This document shows, piece by piece, positions 1 to 12,517 of a stretch of 60,401 nucleotides of DNA. The position numbers and the translations under genes were made by a program. Within the stretch, counting starts at the first letter, position 1, and every line of letters begins with the position of its first letter. Where the stretch lies: positions 1-60,401 of the forward strand of contig CAILNN010000247.1 of NCBI GenBank assembly GCA_903835555.1, in the 5' to 3' direction. Source of the stretch: an uncultured Verrucomicrobiota bacterium. GTDB taxonomy: Bacteria; Verrucomicrobiota; Verrucomicrobiia; Limisphaerales; UBA9464. Under the pieces are notes generated by a model, which did no database searches, was not told where the DNA came from, and saw only the letters and a list, made by a program, of their open reading frames with translations.

Positions 1-88
1 CCTGGACCACAACCTGTTCGTTTTTGAATGCAATCTTGCGCCGTTTGATTGCGAACCCCAATCTTTGCACCTGTATCCAGCAAATTAG
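1..88 (+). CDS. possible 3' end of an upstream gene (partial)
   Basis: Frame starting at nt 2 is open (LDHNLFVFECNLAPFDCEPQSLHLYPAN) and ends in TAG at 86-88, 30 nt before the next gene. No recognisable motif. Confidence 0.25.
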   Translation, partial: LDHNLFVFECNLAPFDCEPQSLHLYPAN

Positions 89-118
89 AAACGAACACAG
101 TGCGCCAATAGGAGCCGT

Positions 119-925
119 ATGACCGCCCCTCCAATAGTTCCCGTTTCCCCCCAAACCCTCTCGGCGATCCAGGCCGCGCTAATAGAGCCCAGCGAGATTT
201 TGGGACTGCGGACACGTCAGCGCGAAGAAATCCATGGGCAGATTGTCCACGACACCATTCATCGGCGGGACGGCTGGAATCGTACCTATCGAATTGAGTT
301 GTTGGGCCGGGTGATTGGATTTGGCTCTATCGCCATCGGTGGGCCATGGACGGATAAGCCGACCATTTACGAATTTTATCTGCTTCCAGAACATCGCACC
401 GAAGCATTCAAATCCTTTGAATCGTTTCTATCGGCAAGTGGGGCGACCCATTTCGAGGTTCAGACCAACGACGTTTTGCTTACGGTGATGTTGCACGCGT
501 ACGGACGGAACTTCGAAAGTGAGCGCATCATTTTCTCGGATCAGGCCACCACCTTCCATTCGGTGCCCGGGGCCAATTTGAGGCAAGTCACTGAAGACCC
601 CTCCATCCACGCAGCCATCGAACGCCGTCAAGGAGGGGGTGAATGGCAATTAGAGTTGGAGGGTTCTGTCGTCGGTTCCGGCGGCATCCTTTTCCACTAC
701 AACCGCCCTTACGGCGATGTTTATATGGATGTGGCCGAGCCTTATCGCGGATGCGGCTTGGGCCGTTACCTGGTTCAGGAGCTCAAACGGGAATGTTACC
801 GATTCGGTGCCATACCCTGTGCCCGCTGTTCGACCCAAAACCTGGCCTCACGCGCCACCCTGCAGGCCGCCGGATTTGTGCCGTTTGCCCACATTGTCTT
901 GGCGGAGGTCGCGGTCACGCCCTGA
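119..925 (+). CDS. GNAT family N-acetyltransferase (tandem GNAT-like)
   Basis: 268 aa; acetyl-CoA motif VAEPYRGCGLGRYL and NLASRATLQAAGF; AGGAG RBS just before the ATG. Confidence 0.85.
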   Translation: MTAPPIVPVSPQTLSAIQAALIEPSEILGLRTRQREEIHGQIVHDTIHRRDGWNRTYRIELLGRVIGFGSIAIGGPWTDKPTIYEFYLLPEHRTEAFKSFESFLSASGATHFEVQTNDVLLTVMLHAYGRNFESERIIFSDQATTFHSVPGANLRQVTEDPSIHAAIERRQGGGEWQLELEGSVVGSGGILFHYNRPYGDVYMDVAEPYRGCGLGRYLVQELKRECYRFGAIPCARCSTQNLASRATLQAAGFVPFAHIVLAEVAVTP

Positions 926-1203
926 ACTCGACCATGAAAAGACAGTAAAGCTAACATTTTACACGATCGCCTCTCCAAGATTGTGCACAATCAATGCGTA
1001 ACCTATTGAAGTAAAGCAACATCGGGCGAGACTCCGTCGAGCCAGAGGCGGTCCGAACCACGCTCCGCTTGGAACGCAGACGTCTTTTTGGCATGACGGG
1101 TAAAAATCGGACGGTGTTCCCGATTGGGAACAGGACTAGAACGACGAATTTCCTGTGCAACTCGAGATTGCAATTTCTCGATGTACGATTTCGCTAAAGG
1201 ACA

Positions 1204-1956
1204 TCAACTGCAATTATGCCAGAAATGGTAAACCGTGATGGCATTGGCCATCCCTTTTCCGTCAGGCCACTGGAAATCCCGTTCGTGTTCACTGAAGTGG
1301 ACAGCTTCTGCTTCAAGACAGGCGGAGGCACCTCGAACACCGCAAATTTTGGGGCTAAATACAGTTCTGAGTGATGCTTTGCGCTGGTTCTCTTCCATCG
1401 CCGGAATCAAATGTCCAGCTATGCTTCTACCGTCGCGGACGTACGCAAGCATTATAGCTTCTTGCATAGCCCATGCGTAGTCGCCGCGCACGAAACGGAT
1501 GAGTCCGCCGTCACAGTATTTACTACCGACCGGGTGAGTTGAGTCGACGGGTTTGGCTTCAATGAACAGCCCATCGAACTCCGAGATCACATGGCGCGGT
1601 TCTGATTCGTCATTGCGGAGTTTGAAGAAGATGTCGGGAGTCTTGTTTGGGTGCTTGCCGTCATAGTTGGCCCACTGGCCCTGACGGATGACGGTCTCAA
1701 ATGTTCGTTTATTGAAGCCGGGAATCTCGCCGCTCTGCCGCAGACTGTTCTCAATGGTGCTACGAATGGCGGCGGTGACTTTGTCTTCGGTGGCAGAAGC
1801 GAGGTTGAATCCCTGCTCGCGTAATAGCTCGAAGGCGCGCAGGAGCACGCGCCGTATGAGCAGGATGACAGGGAGACCGAGGCGCGGATGTGGGAGATGG
1901 TAACGCTCCGCCGAAATGCCGAGCGTGAAGAAGCCCGCTGTGTCCGCTGAACTCAT
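1204..1956 (-). CDS. hypothetical protein with PD-(D/E)XK nuclease-like motif
   Basis: Start reassigned to ATG at 1956, which overlaps the MTase stop (ATGA); 250 aa; motifs TEDKVT, KTPDIFF, GLFIEAKPV, GLIRFVRGDY. Confidence 0.7.
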   Translation of the reverse strand: MSSADTAGFFTLGISAERYHLPHPRLGLPVILLIRRVLLRAFELLREQGFNLASATEDKVTAAIRSTIENSLRQSGEIPGFNKRTFETVIRQGQWANYDGKHPNKTPDIFFKLRNDESEPRHVISEFDGLFIEAKPVDSTHPVGSKYCDGGLIRFVRGDYAWAMQEAIMLAYVRDGRSIAGHLIPAMEENQRKASLRTVFSPKICGVRGASACLEAEAVHFSEHERDFQWPDGKGMANAITVYHFWHNCS

Positions 1957-4900
1957 GCCTGCTCGGGTAGCCCGCACGCGCCGAGTCGTTCGCGGATGAT
2001 ATGTTGCGCGCAGAGTCGGGCGCGGGTGACCGTCCACCAACGACGTTGATTGAGCAACCCGATGAGCAATCCGCGCTTGCCAGGTGCGTGGACGACGATG
2101 CGGCTGCACCCGCGTTGGTTGGCCGCCTCCATTGCTTTCCGCATCAGACTGGAATTTATCGTCAATGAGTCGGATTCGCGTGAGACTGTAAGAAAAAACC
2201 ACGGTTCACGCCACGTGTCCGGCTGGAATTCCGCCTCTCGCACCGCGGCGTGTTCGCCGCAGACATCGAAATACGGCTCTAGTTCGTCGCGTAGCTTCTT
2301 CACGAAATCGGCGCGCGTGTCGCAAGTGGTACGGTCTAGCGAGGCTTTGCCCGCCTTACGATACGATACGGCGGCGAAGAGCGTGTCCTCGGCGACCTGT
2401 ACCGCGTCGGGATCCAGGCCGTAGAGGCCGAAGATGAAATCGTTGATCTCCCGCCAAGGCTTGCTTGCGTCATGCTGAAGTCGCGGCGCGAGGCTTCGTA
2501 TGGTGGCTTTGGTTGCAGCCGTAAGCGTGGCGAGGTCGGGGAATGGCAACGCATCGAACTCCTCCTTGTTAAACGTTTGCCGGTCGAAGCCGCTCCGGCG
2601 GCTGGTCATTAGGCAGAAATAGGCAAACAGCTTCGAATGCGGCAGCAGGTAGATCAGCGCGGCGAGCGATTCAGCATCGGGATGGTCGGCGCACGAGTAG
2701 CCGTAGAAGCTTTGAGAAAAGGCAACAGGTCGATCAGACAGGTAGGCCCGAGGGGCTTCCTCATCATAACCGGGAGCCTGCGGTATGATGACGAGTGGCG
2801 GTTGATAGAGTTCTTTGCGTCGCGGCTTGTGAGCGCTGCTTTGTCCTTGGTCGTTCTTCCCGTAAAGTTCCGCGTATGTTTTAGTTCTCGGGTTATCCAG
2901 CAAGAGCACCTCGCTGGGAGGCTCGAAAACCGAGAGGTCCGCTAGAAAATCCACGTACTTCTGAGTCGAATCCGGAGAGCGATTGTAACCTTGACCTGAC
3001 TTGTCTCCGGTCTTGTCCCACTCGGCCCAACGGTCCTCAAGGGTCTTGTTGTCGGTCCTCAACAGTACCTCCATAATTTCCACATCCAGCCAAGTCCCGA
3101 GCGAGAGTGTCTTGAGCAGCCACGGCTGCTTTTCCAAACGGGCGACGCTGATGGGTTGGGCGGATTCGTAGTCGATTCGGAACCGTCCCTCGGCATTGAC
3201 TTCCGGCTCATAGCGTGGGGCGGAGTATTGAAGGCGATGATCCGATGCGGGCTTTGCATTAAGCGCGAAAAGGAGGCAGAAGGGTATATCCATACCGTCC
3301 CATACCGCAGTCTTACGCAGGTCCGCTCCGTTGATTAGTCCCGTCACCTCGACGCTACGGAGCACGGCTCGCCAAGCCTCGAAACCATTGCCGCTGGTGC
3401 GTCCAAACAGCCGGGCAGGCATGGCAAGGGCGATGACGCCGCCGTCTTTTGCCCACTCCGTCGCACGCCATAGGAAAGGCAGGTCAGGATTTTTGTCGGG
3501 GTTTTGGAAACATTTGGCCATGTCGTCCAATCCACGAGCGGCAAGCACCCGACGGCCGATGGCTGTGAATTCTTTGTTCAACTCATCTGTCGCGGACTTG
3601 CTTGCCATTTCTTCCGATTTATCCTCGACTTCGCCTTTATCGTCACGCAGCCGTGTCCATGGCGGATTGCCGATGACGATGTCGAAATTCTTGTCGAAAT
3701 CCGGTGAGACTTCCGGGCCGAGACTGCCCAACGGGAATGCCTTCTTCCCTTCGACTTCGTCGCCACCAAAACGGTAGAGCACTTCGCCACGCAGGTTGCG
3801 GGGAAACTTGAGCGCCTGCGGTGGACGCGGACTGGCGTTGAGTTCGATGGCGGTGATGTAGAGCGCAAGTGCGGCGAGGCGGAGTGCCGATTCGCTAATG
3901 TCGAAACCGCGCACCTGATTGTATAGTATCTTTTGAATGACCGAGGTCCTGGGGCGTTCGCCGCCATTCCATTGCTCACGGACCAGGCGGCGGAATGCGA
4001 GCACGAGGAAAATACCTGCCCCGCAGGAACTATCGAGCACTTTAGCATTCGCCTTGTTTTTCGTGGCGGCGAATGCCTCGTTCACCATGAGCGAGGCGAT
4101 GGTTCGTGGTGTGTAGTGGACGCTTGTATCACGGGCCGTGAGCGGATCGGCACGGTGACTGAAGCTCTCGTACACCTGGCTGAGTACCCCAACCGGGATG
4201 TGAGCAAAATCGAGGTCGCCCCAGTCGAGTTCCATTTGAATGGCCTCGCCAGTGGCCCGCCAACCACGGAGAATCGCGTGGAGATGGGTGAAGATTCGTT
4301 TCCCAACTAGATTTTCGGTGCGCTTGAAGAAACGAAGATATTCCGCTTCGCGGGCATTGCGGTTTTCGGCAGGAATGGTTTCGTCAATGAGGGTGAGGAA
4401 ATCCCCGTTGAAGGTTGCATCAAGCCAAGCGGAGGTTTGAGCCGCTTTTTCGGCGGTAGAAAACGCATCCTTGAGTCCGATCGCTGCTGCGCAGATTTCG
4501 TCACATTCGTTTTCGAGTACGATGCGCCGGTCGATGAGAAAGCGAAAGAAAAGCGCGCGCCCTGCCATCGAAAGAACCTCAAGCGCGTCCAATCGCCCGT
4601 TGCCTTCTTCTGGGACGAACTCGTTCGTCGTGCGCGTCAGAAGGTCGAAGATTTTATGGAAGACGTAATCTGTTCCGGGCAGCCGATGGTTTTCCTCGAA
4701 TGTGCGGTGGACGAGGCTCTGGAAAAATAAGGGTGCCGTTTCGCTTCCCTCCTGAATTATCTTAACCGGTTGAGCATCGGCAGCCGCGTGGAAGCCGATT
4801 GGAAAAATTTCCAGCGAACCTGGGTGGATGACACCAAGCCAGGCGGGATCACTGCGATTAGCGAGCTGTCGACGCACGCTAGCAAGTGAGCTCGTATCGC

Positions 4901-5126
4901 TCTTTAGACCGCCTGCGTCCATGAGGTAAAGCAGTGCTGTCCCTTGATGTTCGGCGACCGCCGTTAGGACTGGGGTATGGTTGTTTTGTTTGGGCAGCAG
5001 GTCGAGATAGTCAAGTTGCGCGGACGTCGAGAGTTTTTCATCTAGGCGAATAACGCTGGTGCATCCGTACGCAGCCAAGCGCTCGACCAGCGTGCGCGAA
5101 TCAGGATGTGATACTCCGGAGCGCAT
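1953..5126 (-). CDS. large N6-adenine DNA methyltransferase (Type IIG/Eco57I/HsdM-like, gamma motif order) with C-terminal target-recognition region
   Basis: About 1057 aa; GDLDFAHIPVGVLSQVYE, HYTPRTIA, motif I VLDSSCGAGIFL, motif IV IVIGNPPW. ATG at 5126 (or GTG at 5129) overlaps the lexA stop and follows GGAGGAAGG. Confidence 0.9.
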   Translation of the reverse strand: MRSGVSHPDSRTLVERLAAYGCTSVIRLDEKLSTSAQLDYLDLLPKQNNHTPVLTAVAEHQGTALLYLMDAGGLKSDTSSLASVRRQLANRSDPAWLGVIHPGSLEIFPIGFHAAADAQPVKIIQEGSETAPLFFQSLVHRTFEENHRLPGTDYVFHKIFDLLTRTTNEFVPEEGNGRLDALEVLSMAGRALFFRFLIDRRIVLENECDEICAAAIGLKDAFSTAEKAAQTSAWLDATFNGDFLTLIDETIPAENRNAREAEYLRFFKRTENLVGKRIFTHLHAILRGWRATGEAIQMELDWGDLDFAHIPVGVLSQVYESFSHRADPLTARDTSVHYTPRTIASLMVNEAFAATKNKANAKVLDSSCGAGIFLVLAFRRLVREQWNGGERPRTSVIQKILYNQVRGFDISESALRLAALALYITAIELNASPRPPQALKFPRNLRGEVLYRFGGDEVEGKKAFPLGSLGPEVSPDFDKNFDIVIGNPPWTRLRDDKGEVEDKSEEMASKSATDELNKEFTAIGRRVLAARGLDDMAKCFQNPDKNPDLPFLWRATEWAKDGGVIALAMPARLFGRTSGNGFEAWRAVLRSVEVTGLINGADLRKTAVWDGMDIPFCLLFALNAKPASDHRLQYSAPRYEPEVNAEGRFRIDYESAQPISVARLEKQPWLLKTLSLGTWLDVEIMEVLLRTDNKTLEDRWAEWDKTGDKSGQGYNRSPDSTQKYVDFLADLSVFEPPSEVLLLDNPRTKTYAELYGKNDQGQSSAHKPRRKELYQPPLVIIPQAPGYDEEAPRAYLSDRPVAFSQSFYGYSCADHPDAESLAALIYLLPHSKLFAYFCLMTSRRSGFDRQTFNKEEFDALPFPDLATLTAATKATIRSLAPRLQHDASKPWREINDFIFGLYGLDPDAVQVAEDTLFAAVSYRKAGKASLDRTTCDTRADFVKKLRDELEPYFDVCGEHAAVREAEFQPDTWREPWFFLTVSRESDSLTINSSLMRKAMEAANQRGCSRIVVHAPGKRGLLIGLLNQRRWWTVTRARLCAQHIIRERLGACGLPEQA

Positions 5127-5743
5127 CACCTTCCTCCCCCCTGTTGGCGAATCAGACCTACGTATTTGCCGAGAATCTGAATGGAGCGCGGAGAATCACT
5201 GTTTAAGACGACATCCGGAAAATCAGGATTAGCCCCACGAAGGAGCACGGCACCGGGGCGACGGTGCAAAAACTTAAGAGTTGCATCGTCATCCAGCAGG
5301 ACCGCAGCGATTTCGCCCTCCTCCACGTCGGATTGGCGATTCAGGACTGCAATATCGCCGGAGAGAATGCCTGCATTCTTCATGCTATCCCCGCGCACAC
5401 GGAGTGCGAACAAGTCAGTACCATGGAAAAGATGGGGGGACACTGGCACCATTTCATTGACCTCCTGGATCGCATTCCCAGGATTGCCCGCAGCGATTTG
5501 CCCAACCAAGGGAATGCCCTGGGAATGGTTGGGGCTCAGCCTCAGTCCCCGTGCTTTTCCGGGAAGCCGCGCGAGCATTCCCTTTTTTTCCATCAGTTTC
5601 AGATGAGATCGCACCGAATTTTGGCTGGCAAAGCCGAATCGCTCTGCGATTTCCCGGTGGGTGGGCATGATGCCGCTTTCGCGAACCTCAGATTCAAGGA
5701 ATGCGGCAATATCCAACTGACGTGCAGTAGGCTGCAATGGCAT
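5126..5743 (-). CDS. lexA: LexA transcriptional repressor
   Basis: Start at ATG 5743 (MPLQPTARQ); wHTH PTHREIAERFGFASQNSVRSHL; Ala-Gly cleavage site IAAG; catalytic Ser in VRGDSM and Lys in ATLK. Confidence 0.93.
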   Translation of the reverse strand: MPLQPTARQLDIAAFLESEVRESGIMPTHREIAERFGFASQNSVRSHLKLMEKKGMLARLPGKARGLRLSPNHSQGIPLVGQIAAGNPGNAIQEVNEMVPVSPHLFHGTDLFALRVRGDSMKNAGILSGDIAVLNRQSDVEEGEIAAVLLDDDATLKFLHRRPGAVLLRGANPDFPDVVLNSDSPRSIQILGKYVGLIRQQGGGR

Positions 5744-5754
5744 CCAGGTGATCG

Positions 5755-5774
5755 TACTGCCCGAAAAGGCAGTA
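5755..5774. promoter_or_regulatory. candidate LexA operator palindrome TACTGCC-N6-GGCAGTA (= TACTG-N10-CAGTA)
   Basis: Perfect 7-bp arms 12-31 nt upstream of the lexA ATG; same geometry as the CTG-N10-CAG SOS box. Confidence 0.55.
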
Positions 5775-5859
5775 TCAAGACGTTTGTTGGAAAACAAGAG
5801 ACAACAATCCCGCAAAGCAGGGAGCGCAGGACAAATGGATCAATGGATTACCCAAAACG

Positions 5860-8800
5860 TCACCGGGTCGGCAATATCTCTTCATCCAGGGGGGCATTCG
5901 CCGCATCGCCGAATTCCAATCGCAATTGGTGAAGCTCCGACTTTAGTCGCGCAACCGTCGCTGCCGCCGACGGTTCGTAGTAAATGCTGTGCATTTCTTC
6001 CGGATCCAAGGCGCGGTCGAACAGTTCCCATTCGCCGGTCTGGAAATACCGGGCCATCGTATAACGTCCGGTCCGGATGCCAAAGTGCGGTGCCACATTG
6101 TGGACCGGATCATAATAGCGATAGAAGATGCTGGTACGCCAATCCGACGGGATATCTCCCCGCAGGATGGGGACAAAAGAACGCCCATGCAGTCCAGCCG
6201 GTGCCTGTCCACCGGCGATCTCGGCCAGGGTTGGGCCGTAGTCCATGTTTTGCACCATCGACTCAAATCGGCTCCCGGGCTTTACCACTCCCGGCCATTG
6301 AACAATCAAAGGCATGTGGATCGATTCTTCGTAAATCCACCGTTTGTCGAACCACCCGTGTTCCCCATTGTAAAAGCCCTGGTCCGAGGAATAAATGACC
6401 ACGGTGTTTTCTTCCAAGCCCTGAGCTTTGAGTTCCGCCATTAGACTGCCGACACTGTCGTCGACCGCTTTGATGCAGCGGAGGTAGTCTTTCATATACT
6501 CCTGGTACTTCCAGCGGGTGAGTTCGCGACCAGCTAGATTGGCCTTGGTAAAGGCTTCGTTTCGGGGTCCGAAAGTGGCACTCCATTCTGCTTTTTGATC
6601 GGTTGTCATTCGGTCCATCTCGGTGGGCCATATTCCCGCCGGATTCACCTTCAGATCAATCGGGAGATTCATATCCCGGGCAATCTCCATTCGCTGATTG
6701 TGAGCGGGTGAGGCTCGACCAGCGTAGTCGTCGAACAGCGTCTCGGGCTCGGGAATCTGAACATCTCCCAGCCACCGATAGTAGCGGGCCGGTGGCATCC
6801 AGTTTCGGTGCGGAGCCTTGTGGTACACCATCAGGAGGAAGGGACGATTGGTATCGCGCTGTCGCAACCAATCGAGGCTCATCCCGGTAATGATATCGGT
6901 CGCGTAGCCGGTGTGAGATTCTTTCCCGTCGGGCCCAATAAAGTCCGGCTGCCAATAGTCGCCCTGTCCCGGCAGGATGCGCCAGTACTCCGTGATCGGA
7001 CGGGTATCGCTGAGGTGCCACTTCCCGATCATCGCCGTTTGATAGCCCTGGGCACGAAACGTCTCGGGAAAGGTCCAGAGGCCGGGGCGGAGCGGCATGT
7101 CCAGGTTGGTCACGCCATGGGCATGACTATGGAGGCCGGTCAGGATGGATGCGCGACTTGGTGAACAAAGGGAATTCCCACAGAATCCATTGACGAAAAG
7201 CCCGCCCCTTGCGGCCAATCGATCCAGATTGGGCGTGACGTTTTGTTGCCGACAGAAATCCGCCAACCGACCTCCGTAGGCTCCAATGGTTTGGAGGGAA
7301 TGGTCGTCGCTCAGCACAAAGACCACATTGGGTCGCCGTGCTGCGGACTCGGTGGAATGGGAGGCTCCAGGGAGTGATTGAGCCGGTACCGGAATGTTCA
7401 GGGGAGCCATCTGGAGCGGGTCTTGATATCGGACCATCGATTCGCGGAGCTCACGGTCCAGTTCGGTGAGCCTGGCTGCGTGTGCTGGTTCTCCCGCCAG
7501 ATTGCGAATCTCGTACGGATCGGCCTTCAGATCGAAGAGTTGAACCTGCTGAAATTTTGGGGTCCGGATCAGCTTCCAATCGGCAGTCTGGATGGCTCGT
7601 TGCGCATCAATATAGGCGGAATAGATCGCGTCATATAGCTTGGATTTCTCGTGTTTCAACAGCGGCACCAAGCTTGGAAATTGAACCGAGGTCGGAATGG
7701 GAATTCCCGCCATGTCACAGGTGGTGGCAAAAAGGCCTTGAAGGTAGACCAAAGCATCCAGGCGTTGACCGGCCGCGATTCCCGGTCCCGCCAGGATGAA
7801 CGGTACCCGAAGCGAGTGGTCATACAGGTTTTGTTTACCCATCAGTCCGTGCTGCCCGACCGCGAGACCTTGGTCGGAGGTGAATATCACCACGGTATTG
7901 TCGGCCTTGCCACTGGCGTCCAGGGCATCGAGGATGCGCCCAATCTCGGCATCCATGTGGCTGATGATGGCGTAATACTCCTGGAGGTGAGTTAAAACCA
8001 CCGATGGCGTCCGAGGATAAGGTGCAAGGACTTCATCCCGAATATCCCACGTATCGATGGGAAAGTAATGGCGGGGGAGGAAATTGGGCGGCAGAGCAAT
8101 CCGGTTGGTCGGATAGCGTTTCAGAAATTCGGCTGGAGCCTGCCGAGGGTCATGTGGCGCATTGAAAGCCACATACATGAAGAACGGTTGCGTGCTTTTG
8201 GACTTTTCCCGCAGGTAGCCGATGGCGGCGTCCGCGATCTGTTCGCTGCTGTGTACCGGGCCGTGCCCTGTTTCGAGCCAGTGTCCCTTCCATCGGGGAT
8301 CGTCGGGCGACCAGGTATTGCCCGGGGCTGGACGAGAATAGGCTGCACCCGTTTCCGGTGTGGATGGAAGAAATCCACCGGTAAGCGGTCCAAGGGTTTG
8401 GAAGCTACGTTTCAAGGCATCGTCGGCCAGATGCCATTTGCCGACCATGTAGGTGGAATAGCCGGCCTGGCCAAGCGTTTCCCCCCAAAGAGCGGCACCT
8501 TCAGGCAAGGTACCGCTATTGGTTCCCCGGCATTGCCACAGGGTCCGACCGGTATTGAGCATGGTCCGACTGGGAACGCAGACTGCACCGCTCCATCCTC
8601 CTTGGTTGAAAGCGTGAGTGAACAAAGTTCCCCTGCGCGCCAACCGGTCGAGATTGGGCGTATGGATGTCGAGTTCGCCGAGGGCACCCAGAGCCCGAAA
8701 GGTTTGGTCGTCGGAAAGCAGCAAGAGAAAATTGGGGCGATCATGCCCGGGCGCGGCAAACGGAGTGGCACCGTGGGCCGGAACAAGGATGCCAATAAGC

Positions 8801-8907
8801 ACCAGATACCTGATGATGAGCCGTGCCATGCGTCGAAAATGAAGCCATGCCGTCATGGCGAAGACTAAACGTCGTTCGCGTTGGAATGGCGAGTCTGAAC
8901 GGTCCAT
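5860..8907 (-). CDS. exported tandem two-domain sulfatase
   Basis: Two complete formylglycine-sulfatase signatures: PNFLLLLSDDQ...CVPSRTMLNTG...GKWHL and PNVVFVLSDDH...CSPSRASILTG...GKWHL. Signal peptide after Met at 8829, so the true start may be 8856 or 8829. Confidence 0.92.
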   Translation of the reverse strand: MDRSDSPFQRERRLVFAMTAWLHFRRMARLIIRYLVLIGILVPAHGATPFAAPGHDRPNFLLLLSDDQTFRALGALGELDIHTPNLDRLARRGTLFTHAFNQGGWSGAVCVPSRTMLNTGRTLWQCRGTNSGTLPEGAALWGETLGQAGYSTYMVGKWHLADDALKRSFQTLGPLTGGFLPSTPETGAAYSRPAPGNTWSPDDPRWKGHWLETGHGPVHSSEQIADAAIGYLREKSKSTQPFFMYVAFNAPHDPRQAPAEFLKRYPTNRIALPPNFLPRHYFPIDTWDIRDEVLAPYPRTPSVVLTHLQEYYAIISHMDAEIGRILDALDASGKADNTVVIFTSDQGLAVGQHGLMGKQNLYDHSLRVPFILAGPGIAAGQRLDALVYLQGLFATTCDMAGIPIPTSVQFPSLVPLLKHEKSKLYDAIYSAYIDAQRAIQTADWKLIRTPKFQQVQLFDLKADPYEIRNLAGEPAHAARLTELDRELRESMVRYQDPLQMAPLNIPVPAQSLPGASHSTESAARRPNVVFVLSDDHSLQTIGAYGGRLADFCRQQNVTPNLDRLAARGGLFVNGFCGNSLCSPSRASILTGLHSHAHGVTNLDMPLRPGLWTFPETFRAQGYQTAMIGKWHLSDTRPITEYWRILPGQGDYWQPDFIGPDGKESHTGYATDIITGMSLDWLRQRDTNRPFLLMVYHKAPHRNWMPPARYYRWLGDVQIPEPETLFDDYAGRASPAHNQRMEIARDMNLPIDLKVNPAGIWPTEMDRMTTDQKAEWSATFGPRNEAFTKANLAGRELTRWKYQEYMKDYLRCIKAVDDSVGSLMAELKAQGLEENTVVIYSSDQGFYNGEHGWFDKRWIYEESIHMPLIVQWPGVVKPGSRFESMVQNMDYGPTLAEIAGGQAPAGLHGRSFVPILRGDIPSDWRTSIFYRYYDPVHNVAPHFGIRTGRYTMARYFQTGEWELFDRALDPEEMHSIYYEPSAAATVARLKSELHQLRLEFGDAANAPLDEEILPTR

Positions 8908-9040
8908 TGCCCAGTCAGATTCATGGTGTCGGAAGGAGAACTAAGGACGGAACTACCCCCCTCGCACGTTTCCCACAGGTCGGCTGCGGCGGGATTTCGG
9001 GCTTTCGGTAATAGGTGGCTCTCCGCTAGGTTGCAGCGGC

Positions 9041-9823
9041 ATGGCTGAATTCATCCCACCCCCCCGAGTAAACGTCCTCGGCGTCGGCATTTCCGTGCTC
9101 AATTTGGACCAGACGGTGAAGCTGTTGGAACAGGCGGTTGCTTCCCATATCCAGGGCTTTGTCACGCTGACCGGAGTCCATGGAGTGATTGATTCCCAGG
9201 ATTCAGAGGAACTTCGTCTCATTCATAATCGGGCGCTGCTTTGCACTCCAGACGGCATGCCCATGGTTTGGTTGGGAAGACTGGCTGGTTATCGGCAAAT
9301 GGATCGGGTGTATGGGCCGGATTTGATGGACCGTATCCTGTCGCGCGGACCCACGACCGGACAAACACATTTTTTTTACGGAGGCAAAGAGGGCGTTGCT
9401 GACAAGCTCAAAGTAGTGTTTGAAGCCCGCTATCCGGGTGTCCGGATTGTCGGTTCCTATTGTCCGCCCTTTCGACCGCTGACCGATGAGGAACAGGCGC
9501 AACTGGAGGCGCAGGTGGCATTGGCTAAACCCGACTATTTTTGGGTAGGCGTCGGGCATCCGCGCCAAGTGCATTTCATGGCAACCCAATCAGGGCGATT
9601 GCAGACCAAAATCATGCTCGGGGTGGGTGCCGCGTTTGATTTCCATACGGGAACCGTGCGTCAGGCACCGCGGTGGATTCAACGGAGTGGATTTGAATGG
9701 TTATACCGGACCTTTTGTGAGCCGCGTCGATTGGGTCCGCGGTATTTCCGGAACAATCCCCGTTTCGTGTGGCTCATTCTTGGGCAACTCACCGGCCTTC
9801 GCAGGGTTCCAAGCCTCGAATAA
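9041..9823 (+). CDS. WecB/TagA/CpsF (GT26) glycosyltransferase
   Basis: TPDGMPMVW, RVYGPDLM, PPFRPL, GVGAAFDF, APRWIQRSGFEWLYR, EPRRL. Confidence 0.93.
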   Translation: MAEFIPPPRVNVLGVGISVLNLDQTVKLLEQAVASHIQGFVTLTGVHGVIDSQDSEELRLIHNRALLCTPDGMPMVWLGRLAGYRQMDRVYGPDLMDRILSRGPTTGQTHFFYGGKEGVADKLKVVFEARYPGVRIVGSYCPPFRPLTDEEQAQLEAQVALAKPDYFWVGVGHPRQVHFMATQSGRLQTKIMLGVGAAFDFHTGTVRQAPRWIQRSGFEWLYRTFCEPRRLGPRYFRNNPRFVWLILGQLTGLRRVPSLE

Positions 9824-9893
9824 GGGGTTTTGACCGTTTATAATTGTAACCCAGACGACGGCAATTGATCATTCGATCGGAATTGCCGCACCG

Positions 9894-11699
9894 ATGGGAC
9901 GGAAAAAGAAAATCGCATTTCGAACCGTACGCCGACCCGATCGGAGGGGCTACTTGTTCTTGGTGCCTCTGGTGCTGGTTGGGCTTGCCTGGAAGCTGCT
10001 CAATTGGAAACCGGACCAACAATCACCACCAAAGACGGTCGATATTTCCGGGGCGTCCTATGTTGCCCACCCTCGTGGGACGGTCGTTTTCAGCCACGAG
10101 ATTGCGCCAATCGTTTTCACACATTGTTCCCCGTGCCATCGCCCGAATCAAGCGGCACCGTTCCCGCTGTTGAGTTATCGCGACGCGCAACGGCATGCCC
10201 GGGAACTGGTTGAAGTCACTCAATCGGGATACATGCCCCCCTGGCTTCCAGCCGCAGGGTTCGGTCATTTCGTCGATGAGCGCCGCCTTACTGGCGAGGA
10301 AAAGGGATTGATTCAGCAATGGGTTGTCGAGGGAGCCAAAGAGGGCAATCCGGGAGAAACCCCGCCTCCCCCCAACTGGCCGGACGGATGGTACCTGGGC
10401 AAACCAGACTTGGTGGTACAAATGCCGTCCGAATACCACCTGGCTCCGGATGGGGAGGACGTTTACCGAAATTTTGTTGTGCCCGTCGACCTCCCTCGCG
10501 ATCGATATGTTCGCGCTTTCGAGTTTCTTCCCCAAAACCAGCGCATCGTTCATCACGCGTTTATCAAGATATCCCCCAACCAAACCGCCCGCAGGAGGGA
10601 AAAGGACGCCGAAATCCCGGGCTTCGACGGGATGGATGTCCCGGCGGAAACGCCGCCAGGCCAGTTTTTGGCATGGCAACCGGGTAAGATACCGGCTCCT
10701 GGGCCCAGTGGACTTCCTTGGAAGCTGCCGGCTGGAGGTGACTTGGTGTTGCAGGTGCACATGAATAAGACGGGCAAGCCGGAAACGCTTCGTTCTTCGG
10801 TGGGACTCTACTTCACCGACGCCCCGCCCACCAACGCGTGCTTCAAGGTGGAGTTGTGCTCGCTGGCCATCGATTTGCCAGCAGGGGCGTCTAATATTGT
10901 CGTCAGCGATACGTTCACCCTCCCGTGTGAGGTGGATGTTCTGTCGGTGCTGCCCCACGCGCATTTCCTGGCGAAGAAAATGAAGGGATGGGCCACTCGA
11001 CCGGATGGAACGCAGGAGTGGTTGCTGTGGATTCCGAAATGGGACTTCAAATGGCAGGGAGATTATCGCTATTCAACCCCGGTCCATTTACCGGTCGGGA
11101 CGGTCCTTCACATGGAGTTTACCTACGACAACTCCGAGCAAAATTCACAGAATCCGCATCATCCGCCGAGAAGGGTCACCTATGGAGCGCAGACGTCCGA
11201 TGAGATGGCTGAGCTTTGGTTTCAATTCCTTCCGCGAGCTGAAAAGGATATTGCTGCCCTTGAGGAGGCGAACCAAGGGCACTTGTGGAGGATCATTCGG
11301 GACCGTGCCACGCACCTATTGGCAGTCGAACCCAATAACCCACTGGCGCACGTCGAAATGGGAAAGTATCTCGTTACCCAAAGAAACCTACCCGCGGCCG
11401 TGCGTGAATTCCGGCGGTCCATTGAACTTCGATCGGATACCGACGAAGCTCACTTTCAATTGGGTATGCTGCTGCGATTCGAGGGCAAGACGGTCGAAGC
11501 GAGGCGGGAGCTCCAAACAGCAGTCCGACTGAACCCAGAGAATTCGATGGCCTTTGGGCATTTGGGGTTCGTGATGGCGGAAATGGGGGAGTTGGCGGAA
11601 GCTGAGCGTTGCTTTCGCAAGACGTTGGAACTTGATCCGGGCGACGCGCTTGCGGCCAAGGCTTTGGCGCAACTCCTACAATCCTCCAAACGTCATTGA
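9894..11699 (+). CDS. membrane-anchored heme c / copper type II monooxygenase-like protein with C-terminal TPRs
   Basis: N-terminal TM; CSPCH; MPPW; IVHH; LQVH; PHAH; DEM; TPR repeats at the C-terminus. Confidence 0.8.
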   Translation: MGRKKKIAFRTVRRPDRRGYLFLVPLVLVGLAWKLLNWKPDQQSPPKTVDISGASYVAHPRGTVVFSHEIAPIVFTHCSPCHRPNQAAPFPLLSYRDAQRHARELVEVTQSGYMPPWLPAAGFGHFVDERRLTGEEKGLIQQWVVEGAKEGNPGETPPPPNWPDGWYLGKPDLVVQMPSEYHLAPDGEDVYRNFVVPVDLPRDRYVRAFEFLPQNQRIVHHAFIKISPNQTARRREKDAEIPGFDGMDVPAETPPGQFLAWQPGKIPAPGPSGLPWKLPAGGDLVLQVHMNKTGKPETLRSSVGLYFTDAPPTNACFKVELCSLAIDLPAGASNIVVSDTFTLPCEVDVLSVLPHAHFLAKKMKGWATRPDGTQEWLLWIPKWDFKWQGDYRYSTPVHLPVGTVLHMEFTYDNSEQNSQNPHHPPRRVTYGAQTSDEMAELWFQFLPRAEKDIAALEEANQGHLWRIIRDRATHLLAVEPNNPLAHVEMGKYLVTQRNLPAAVREFRRSIELRSDTDEAHFQLGMLLRFEGKTVEARRELQTAVRLNPENSMAFGHLGFVMAEMGELAEAERCFRKTLELDPGDALAAKALAQLLQSSKRH

Positions 11700-11700
11700 C

Positions 11701-11764
11701 CTAGTGTCGGGTTTCCGAAATAGCTTACAGTTTGCCCCAAGCTATTTCGGAAACACGACACTAG
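11701..11764. mobile_element. 64-bp MITE-like inverted repeat bounded by CTAG
   Basis: 26-bp arms CTAGTGTCGGGTTTCCGAAATAGCTT / AAGCTATTTCGGAAACACGACACTAG (1 mismatch) around a 12-nt core; a related end recurs at 32589. Confidence 0.7.
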
Positions 11765-11866
11765 GTGGAGAAGAAACTCGTTGGATGACCGTGGGTAAGT
11801 TATTGACGGTATCGATTCAACGGTTAGGGTTTGCGGCTCTGCTTCTCCCGGGAAGCGGTCGATGAC

Positions 11867-12004
11867 ATGAAACGCCAGTACCAGCCTTCCAAGATTCGTC
11901 GGGTCCGGCAACACGGATTCCGCGCCCGCTTGGCCACCAAGAGTGGCCGTGGGATTTTGCGCAACCGCCGTCGCGTGGGCCGTAAGCGGCTTACACCCGT
12001 TTGA
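11867..12004 (+). CDS. rpmH: 50S ribosomal protein L34 (not in the ORF track)
   Basis: Translated by hand: [45 protein letters not shown]; precedes rnpA. Confidence 0.97.
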
Positions 12005-12079
12005 GCAAACCGTCACGCGAACTGACAACCATCGTCAAACAGTGGTTGAGTCTCGGTCTAGCGTCCCCATCATCCTACC

Positions 12080-12517
12080 ATGCCCACGACTGGTCGTCCC
12101 CGGGAGACACTCTCCCGCGCACAACGGTTGCGGTCTAGTGGAGATTTTTTGCGCCTCAAGGACCAAGGCAAGCGGCAGGTACACGGCTGCCTCATTCTGA
12201 ATTGGCAGTCGGCACCTTCCGGGGTCGCCGGACTCTCGTTCAAAACCCGCTTGGGGGTGGTCACCAGTAAACGTGTGGGAGGGGCAGTGGTTCGAAACCG
12301 AGCTCGACGCCTGCTGCGCGAGGTTTTTCGACGGAACCGTTATCTCCTGCAGCCGATCACTTCTGTTGTGCTGGTGGCTCGCCCGTCCATTGCAGGCATG
12401 GGGTACGCTCAAGTCGAACGCGATTTTGTCGAAACTCTCCGCCGTGCCCGTTTGTTGCAGGTCGGCATATCGCCAACAAATCCGTTCCAACTGCCTGGCT
12501 CCAAGCTGAATCCGTGA
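12080..12517 (+). CDS. rnpA: ribonuclease P protein component
   Basis: RLGVVTSKRVGGAVVRNRARRLLRE (RNR motif); synteny. Confidence 0.95.
   Translation: MPTTGRPRETLSRAQRLRSSGDFLRLKDQGKRQVHGCLILNWQSAPSGVAGLSFKTRLGVVTSKRVGGAVVRNRARRLLREVFRRNRYLLQPITSVVLVARPSIAGMGYAQVERDFVETLRRARLLQVGISPTNPFQLPGSKLNP

Follow-up and report, generated by a model that had tools for sequence, protein, structure and literature searches.

The window analysed here, a 60,401-nucleotide (nt) stretch of contig CAILNN010000247.1 (assembly GCA_903835555.1) from an uncultured Verrucomicrobiota bacterium, carries a cassette of three genes encoding a LexA repressor, an N6-adenine methyltransferase (hereafter the methylase) and a predicted nuclease, ORF3 (Table 1). 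The three open reading frames (ORFs) lie on the minus strand with overlapping stop and start codons, all at the positions claimed by a first-pass annotation of the sequence. TGATG at 5128-5124 forms the lexA/methylase junction, with GGAGG at 5137-5133, 6 nt upstream, and ATGA at 1956-1953 joins the methylase gene to ORF3. A LexA operator and promoter are predicted at 5751-5778, an element absent from that annotation. The three coupled genes and the promoter palindrome are a conserved, selected unit that is patchily distributed.

Table 1. Features of the cassette and its flanks. Positions are those of the window; regions of the methylase are in residues, with borders taken from alignments. aa, amino acids
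Feature	Position	Strand	Description
Predicted -35 hexamer TTGATA	5773-5778	minus	Sole promoter-like match on the minus strand; TTGATA in 16/34 homologous promoters
Predicted LexA operator TACTGCC-N6-GGCAGTA	5755-5774	.	CTG-N10-CAG class; occupies the -35/-10 spacer
Predicted -10 hexamer TACGAT	5751-5756	minus	7 nt before the lexA ATG
lexA	5126-5743	minus	205 aa; winged helix and S24 peptidase; cassette-specific clade
Coupling element lexA/methylase	5124-5137	minus	GGAGG ribosome-binding site and TGATG stop/start overlap
Methylase gene	1953-5126	minus	1057-aa gamma-class N6-adenine methyltransferase
Methylase, N-terminal part	~1-300		Type IIG-like N-terminal and helical region, no E-x-K motif
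Methylase, catalytic core	~300-640		Catalytic core
Methylase, variable region	~700-862		Variable predicted target-recognition region
Methylase, C-terminal part	~900-1057		Conserved C-terminal extension
ORF3	1204-1956	minus	250-aa predicted PD-(D/E)XK nuclease, unnamed family
GCN5-related N-acetyltransferase (GNAT) gene, flank	119-925		
Apparent tandem sulfatase-like gene, flank	5860-8907

Three sets of loci were compared: 50 from genomes, chosen by ORF3, and, chosen by the methylase, the best 80 among 559 confirmed metagenome loci and three from viral contigs. The methylase gene lies upstream of ORF3 in 44 of the 50 genome loci, three of the other six ending at or near a contig edge, and the nuclease gene follows in 57/58 methylase-first loci with enough downstream DNA (101/102 overall). 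Adjacency of lexA was counted in 107 of 133 loci; the 26 dropped had less than 700 nt of upstream sequence or no methylase N-terminus. lexA stands directly upstream of the methylase gene in 41 of these 107 (6/37 genome, 35/67 metagenome and 0/3 viral loci), with a TRATG or ATGA overlap in 34 of the 41, so the arrangement, for which a gene-neighbourhood check had been proposed, is not confined to this genome. After clustering at 90% identity, lexA was upstream in 27 of 76 clusters (81 distinct near-full-length methylases) and in 25 of 50 close-clade clusters, with at least eight state changes on a FastTree phylogeny. In a reverse search through two samples of 401 genomes, 7 of 11 other LexA matches at E ≤ 1e-33, including seven of the best eight, precede a methylase gene; the remaining ones precede umuDC-like, imuAB-like or unrelated genes, and one match is the L012 locus. 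The methylase was found in 2/81 genomes of the host family and on 5 of 72,556 plasmids, and it also occurs in Planctomycetota, Acidobacteriota and Pseudomonas records. No ORF3 match was obtained in 50,697 phage records. The DNA records with the locus are freshwater metagenomes, no RNA record being listed for it, and the GC content of the cassette is unremarkable.

The window LexA scores 174.8 bits against TIGR00498 of NCBIfam (cut-off 110.95) and also matches PF01726 and PF00717 of Pfam. Read from the sequence, its cleavage site is Ala85-Gly86 and its catalytic residues are Ser120 and Lys157. A motif check found the Ala-Gly, Ser and Lys intact in 42/42 cassette LexAs, in keeping with the self-cleaving LexA first proposed for the window. 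The lexA gene is under purifying selection, with a ratio of nonsynonymous to synonymous substitution rates (dN/dS) of 0.10-0.38 in 8/8 chosen pairs.

The predicted operator, TACTGCC-TTTTCG-GGCAGTA, fills a promoter spacing of 16 nt between TTGATA and TACGAT. The promoter scan gave two matches in all against 2.2 expected by chance, which is not significant alone, and conservation carries the weight. Among the lexA genes of the branch to which the window gene belongs (clade A, described below), the palindrome TACTG-N10-CAGTA occurs in 33 of 36 upstream regions, with 24 distinct sequences among 34 sites, some of them near-duplicates. A matrix trained without the window site gave that site 24.0 bits, and the next best site in the 5.3-Mb assembly scored 14.0. 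At the host loci of this 92.8% complete assembly the same matrix reached 0.1 for recA, 1.0 for a dinB-like gene and -8.5 for imuAB, and among 66 lexA-less loci none carried the clade-A operator, the highest score being 4.0 bits. In 32/34 loci an in-frame start codon follows the -10 hexamer at a distance of 6-8 nt, which makes a leaderless lexA mRNA likely. The operon is very probably autoregulated. Another candidate operator, TTGTT-N4-AACAA at 5784, was rejected since it is not conserved.

We take the cassette operator to be an E. coli-like box, and the verrucomicrobial LexA box of Erill et al. from 2016 is reportedly TGTTC-N4-GAACA. Boxes in front of the lexA genes of relatives fit the symmetrised operator consensus TACTGTTCATATGAACAGTA (23.8 bits at L058 and 28.9 bits at L063), so that cross-talk with a host LexA is possible. 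The other cassette LexA types have palindromes of their own beside the start, namely GTGAAC-N4-GTTCAC, TACTAG-N8-CTAGTA and CCGTA-N6-TACGG. As to host-LexA boxes before lexA-less copies, a fixed-pattern scan of 37 upstream regions gave three isolated matches.

According to a LexA tree of 53 rows (quick IQ-TREE run, midpoint root, with a long-branch warning for L053), three LexA lineages head the cassette. Clade A, including the window gene, is one branch of 33 rows with a Shimodaira-Hasegawa-like approximate likelihood ratio support of 99, separate from the relatives' lexA genes, most of which head IMS polymerase genes. Type B comprises L011, L026 and L041, which group with L097. The LexA of L030 nests among the relatives' lexA genes in a lexA-IMS/dnaE clade, and there the methylase-nuclease pair lies 94 nt behind lexA and before an IMS-dnaE fusion gene. 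LexA and methylase identities co-vary across loci (Mantel rho 0.88 for 26 loci and 0.79 for 23 core loci), kin not being independent.

The window lexA is the sole lexA found in its assembly, which answers the call for a check on a second, housekeeping copy. As the first-pass annotation had noted, there is no recA or imu gene in the window; recA lies on contig C53, and two IMS genes lie on C70 and C132, the latter contig carrying imuA-imuB. Searches of two same-genus genomes, 93% and 76% complete, did not turn up the window lexA, and a lexA was found in just 7/24 same-family genomes. Since its own box is the sole strong box in the genome and none was seen at recA, dinB or imuAB, the window LexA looks like the private switch of its own operon, not the master of a host SOS response. 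The host may even be devoid of a LexA-run SOS regulon, because imuA-imuB (C132, L158) and recA (C53, L051) have no box and no second lexA was found. A further full-length lexA is present in four of five other cassette-bearing genomes, and in two of these it heads another methylase gene. Other lexA copies at L195 (G877), L201 (G876), L182 and L178 head a different N6-methylase gene, a DUF5131 gene or another non-repair gene, which suggests that LexA-headed defence operons are a wider theme.

The methylase matches Eco57I, N6_Mtase and MmeI_Mtase of Pfam and contains the motifs TSVHYTP, LDSSCGAG and GNPPW, which agrees with the 1057-aa N6-adenine enzyme originally annotated. Its best PADLOC match is REase_MTase_IIG (E 3e-23, residues 304-429 of the catalytic part), DrdV (7lo5) is matched at E 5.8e-6, and the scores for PglX and MAD2 of NCBIfam are far below cut-off. 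The motifs, their order and the mosaic at 700-862 characterise a gamma-class amino-methyltransferase with a C-terminal recognition region, as in Type IIG enzymes. Close homologues share an identity of 0.80-0.93 over residues 301-450 and of 0.46-0.57 over 701-800. Over 50 non-redundant loci, residues 700-862 form a mosaic in which segments recur, with little correlation to the core (rho 0.19).

By language-model features in the ESM Atlas, which are not calibrated for protein parts, residues 1-300 of the methylase resemble MmeI_N/MmeI_hel (0.95) and HSDR_N (0.91) clusters. A strand pair of the PDGVAE..LLFIVNE type in the N-terminus fits a PD...ExK hairpin by eye. In a by-eye alignment, position 55 is Asp in 14 of 53 sequences and Thr in the query, and no E-x-K appears at the expected strand. 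The methylase is likely a Type IIG enzyme whose N-terminal nuclease domain is dead. The idea that its N-terminal or C-terminal region is a copy of ORF3 was rejected (hhalign probability 0.3%).

ORF3 itself has no match in Pfam, PADLOC or NCBIfam and none above noise by sequence in the Protein Data Bank (PDB), and 99 homologues gave just one weak match each in PADLOC and Pfam and no HsdS match. The family, at 494 clusters at 50% identity, is unmatched in the Pfam and PADLOC copies searched. Residues E57, D108, E133 and K135 are invariant in the 99 sequences. The predicted structure (mean predicted local distance difference test score 94.9) best matches OkrAI (Z 7.1, root-mean-square deviation 3.7, 146 residues) and also matches BglII, BstYI and BamHI; PD-(D/E)XK proteins make up the majority of the 50 best structural matches. 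On this modelled fold and the invariant PD/(D/E)xK residues, ORF3 belongs to the PD-(D/E)XK superfamily as a predicted nuclease, and the 250-aa PD-(D/E)XK-like protein of the first-pass annotation stands.

Across 50 loci, ORF3 identity tracks the methylase core (partial rho 0.45) and not the 700-862 region (partial rho 0.016). In pairs with 90-93% identity in the core and 44-46% in the 700-862 region, nuclease identity is still 86%. The co-variation of nuclease and methylase recognition region expected of a Type IIP pair was hence not found, in a test that is indirect. Because the nuclease follows the core instead of the variable region, it is on balance probable that the methylase guides it. 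Most simply, the large subunit would hold one recognition module, and this module would steer both the methylation and a cutting subunit encoded separately.

Taken together, the cassette is probably, with appreciable room for doubt, a two-subunit R-M (restriction-modification) system derived from Type IIG enzymes, held low by its own LexA and predicted to be de-repressed on RecA-coated single-stranded DNA (ssDNA). Of the parts of this reading, damage inducibility of the operon is probable and an R-M-type function is likely. The first-pass annotation had offered an SOS-gated R-M-like or abortive module; the gating gains from the recurrent adjacency, the operator over the promoter, the intact cleavage residues and the purifying selection on lexA, and for the output the anatomy favours a split Type IIG-like R-M system over an abortive one.

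In the proposed mechanism, LexA would bind the palindrome between the -35 and -10 hexamers and repress a single mRNA, on which lexA would be translated without a leader and the methylase by strong coupling. Basal, autoregulated expression would keep the host DNA methylated. In a newly entered host, where repressor has still to be made, the methylase gene would be read ahead of the nuclease gene. The large protein would recognise and methylate its site, its own N-terminal nuclease-like domain being inactive, and the small nuclease would be recruited to unmethylated sites. When ssDNA arises because a phage or plasmid enters, a prophage is induced or the system itself cuts DNA, RecA, whose gene is present in the genome, would trigger LexA self-cleavage and all three proteins would rise, until newly made LexA closes the loop. 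A broader and more tentative proposal, which we hold to be possible and slightly doubtful, is that one lineage of LexA has moved out of the SOS regulon and now serves a split restriction system as its own portable switch, responsive to RecA-ssDNA. In that system a Type IIG enzyme with a dead nuclease and a reshuffled recognition region would leave cutting to a novel family of nucleases, and LexA control would have been acquired at least three times, with three different operators.

Several observations weigh against this reading. Kinship and partial redundancy among the metagenome loci make the counts and correlations overstate independence. lexA does not adjoin the methylase in 66 of the 107 loci and 25 of the 50 close clusters, and in none of eight comparisons was a box shared with the host lexA promoter found before a lexA-less methylase, because of which LexA control must be regarded as dispensable. 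Alternative upstream genes, such as MerR-like, ribbon-helix-helix (RHH) or truncated HsdR_N and MmeI_N genes, occur at lexA-less loci. The dead-nuclease reading draws on language-model features of a protein part and a by-eye motif alignment, and it is put no higher than likely because hhalign, run for the N-terminus with three single-sequence templates, reached probabilities of 0.3-2.3% and did not confirm homology. The fold match of ORF3 is middling, as the tool flags Z <8 as a possible common arrangement, its best structural matches are self-recognising Type IIP enzymes, and Foldseek returned nothing at E ≤ 0.001, the best match being NucC at E 0.025. In Type I systems restriction usually drops after damage, a phenomenon termed restriction alleviation, since raising a nuclease during repair is risky (PMC11109961). 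A preprint on E. coli places some defence genes in LexA networks and reports defence expression overall to be negatively correlated with recA (10.64898/2025.12.14.694197).

Other explanations fit part of the same evidence. LexA might serve mainly as an establishment or dosage controller in the manner of a controller (C) protein, its negative autoregulation limiting toxicity and damage induction being incidental. The interchangeable regulator slot, occupied by one of three LexA lineages, a MerR-like helix-turn-helix (HTH) protein, an RHH protein in L007 or no detected regulator, and the absence of lexA from about half of the close relatives would suit such a role. However, repression alone should not need the peptidase dyad and cleavage site that all 42 LexAs keep under purifying selection, which weakens the idea, and LexA rather than a simple HTH protein is found three times at the same position; we consider it unlikely. 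Also unlikely is a conventional Type II system, likewise controlled by LexA, in which a small nuclease reads its own site like BamHI or BglII and a large methylase only protects. Separate methylase and nuclease genes are the usual Type II layout and the fold matches to OkrAI, BglII, BstYI and BamHI (Z 5.8-7.1) point the same way, yet the nuclease shows neither co-variation with the variable region nor the divergence of that region in closely related pairs.

The cassette could also be a damage-triggered abortive or addiction module, in which the methylase restrains the nuclease and induction degrades the host DNA, similar to LexA-controlled toxins or to the CapH/CapP-controlled cyclic-oligonucleotide-based anti-phage signalling system (CBASS). 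Damage-induced, cell-killing defences are documented (10.1101/2022.04.27.489752), the nuclease appears to be without its own specificity, and the weak top Foldseek matches are NucC. The methylase nevertheless keeps its full catalytic motifs and a shuffled recognition-like region, a signature of sequence-based discrimination between self and non-self, and such a module is improbable. Least credible is that an ordinary methylase-nuclease pair happened to insert behind a host housekeeping lexA. This would fit L030 and the solitary lexA of the window assembly, but membership of the window LexA in a cassette-linked clade, the failure to find it in the two same-genus genomes and the lack of a strong box at recA, dinB or imuAB largely refute it for the window locus and render it very improbable.

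The split Type IIG-like system favoured here shares features with several known ones. Type IIG/IIL single-chain enzymes such as MmeI, DrdV, BpuSI and Eco57I are also about 1000 aa long, with the gamma-class motif order X-I-IV of MmeI (PMC2582602), and the N-terminal region of the cassette methylase resembles MmeI_N/MmeI_hel, one variable recognition region presumably directing both activities. In contrast to these, no equivalent of VD-X9-E-x-K was found in the N-terminus, and a separate nuclease gene is present in 57/58 loci. ORF3 resembles the Type IIP group of BamHI, BglII, BstYI and OkrAI in its PD...E-x-K core (Z 5.8-7.1, deviation 3.7-4.0, 135-146 residues), whereas identity is 5-10% and co-variation with the partner's recognition region is missing. 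Unlike in BcgI/BsaXI-like Type IIB systems, the second subunit is not HsdS-like, ORF3 having a restriction-endonuclease-like fold and invariant catalytic residues.

With regard to regulation, C-protein Type II operons (PvuII, BamHI and Esp1396I) are likewise headed by an autoregulated factor that binds its own promoter (PMC12707154), as is predicted here; by contrast, the cassette regulator is a LexA with self-cleavage residues that would sense RecA-ssDNA, and it precedes the methylase and not the nuclease gene. CapH/CapP, CapK/CapS, CapW/BrxR and DdaA also place a dedicated regulator before an immune operon that is raised on DNA damage, according to 10.1101/2022.04.27.489752 and PMC13373217, and comparable induction is predicted for the cassette. 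Those regulators use a separate peptidase, a kinase or an ssDNA-sensing WYL domain, whereas in the cassette sensing would fall to host RecA, which would act on a single LexA polypeptide. The verrucomicrobial LexA and lexA-headed mutagenesis cassettes come close through the match of the operator consensus to boxes of relatives' lexA genes; the present cassette differs in its separate LexA clade and in a cargo of methylase and nuclease instead of translesion polymerases.

DdaA boxes have been predicted before R-M systems in Moraxellaceae (PMC12392091), and LexA appears in PMC3874152 in connection with toxin-antitoxin systems. LexA has no mention in the available main text of the R-M regulation review PMC12707154 or in the accessible parts of 10.1101/2022.04.27.489752 and PMC13373217 on CapH/CapP and CapK/CapS, and the regulator and R-M layout of the cassette are not described in those of PMC8565304, PMC9122601 and PMC7739468. 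No description of a LexA-headed methylase-nuclease cassette was found in the literature searched, which left out supplements and most subscription journals. Damage-inducible immunity is thus already known, and it is the LexA regulator with the split R-M layout that was not found described there; the cassette would represent an R-M variant with an unusual regulator.

R-M systems are usually viewed as constitutive or C-protein-timed. If the broader proposal holds, restriction would be an immunity induced by DNA damage, possibly reinforced by the system's own cuts, contrary to restriction alleviation. A cassette with a cleavable LexA of its own bears on a long-standing question: whether the SOS signal can switch restriction up, and by what means a cell would then spare its repaired, unmethylated DNA. 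A methylase with naturally shuffled recognition segments guiding a separate nuclease would likewise add a new architecture to the known R-M systems and would supply new specificities. The unit carries its own regulator and a presumably E. coli-like box, and it is therefore testable in a laboratory strain.

The neighbourhood of the pair varies. Defence-type neighbours (HsdR_N, MmeI_N, TIR, AbiEii, RhuM, SNF2, TOTE primase and TniQ) occur at several loci, and no helicase/ATPase or accessory gene of Type I/III R-M, BREX, DISARM or MADS systems was found in the window operon, the flanks differing across the 50 loci. Truncated HsdR_N or MmeI_N genes lie directly upstream at L005:939-1586, L024:4069-4692 and L037:4099-4941, as if the pair had displaced another R-M system. 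The type-B copies of L026 and L041 follow an SNF2 helicase gene, and L026 (8644-11151) runs on into a TOTE primase-helicase gene. MerR-like HTH genes before the methylase in Pseudomonas-type loci gave E 0.005-0.02, below cut-off; in the gammaproteobacterial copies L046:4320-4772, L047:4321-4812 and L048:4246-4698, a gene of about 150 aa with a weak MerR-like HTH lies shortly upstream of the methylase. An RHH gene heads the L007 copy, and other copies have no regulator detected upstream. L001, L002, L005, L006, L024 and L034 share a degenerate sequence about 250 nt upstream of the methylase that ends in TGATG, and L010, L013, L016, L019 and L021 share a second upstream sequence family. The by-eye idea of a decayed lexA in the former six was dropped, pairwise z-scores to lexA being mostly <3 and the best nhmmer E 0.62 among 66 regions.

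Both genes flanking the window cassette occur in the two same-genus genomes beside other neighbours, no clean empty site was found there, and four DNA runs yielded no credible empty-site or excision joints. Rfam gave no match within window positions 1-12500. Positions 997-1063 hold a copy of a dispersed repeat resembling repetitive extragenic palindromes (REP-like), with a GTAG-GGCGAGACTCCGTCGAGCC core and long conserved flanks, GTAG being deleted in this copy. The repeat accounts for 116 blast rows in the genome and is also present in both same-genus genomes, and it was not found beside the cassette at other loci. An 18-bp palindrome, TGTTCCC-N4-GGGAACA, at 1116-1133, about 70 nt beyond the ORF3 stop, is a candidate terminator or binding site.

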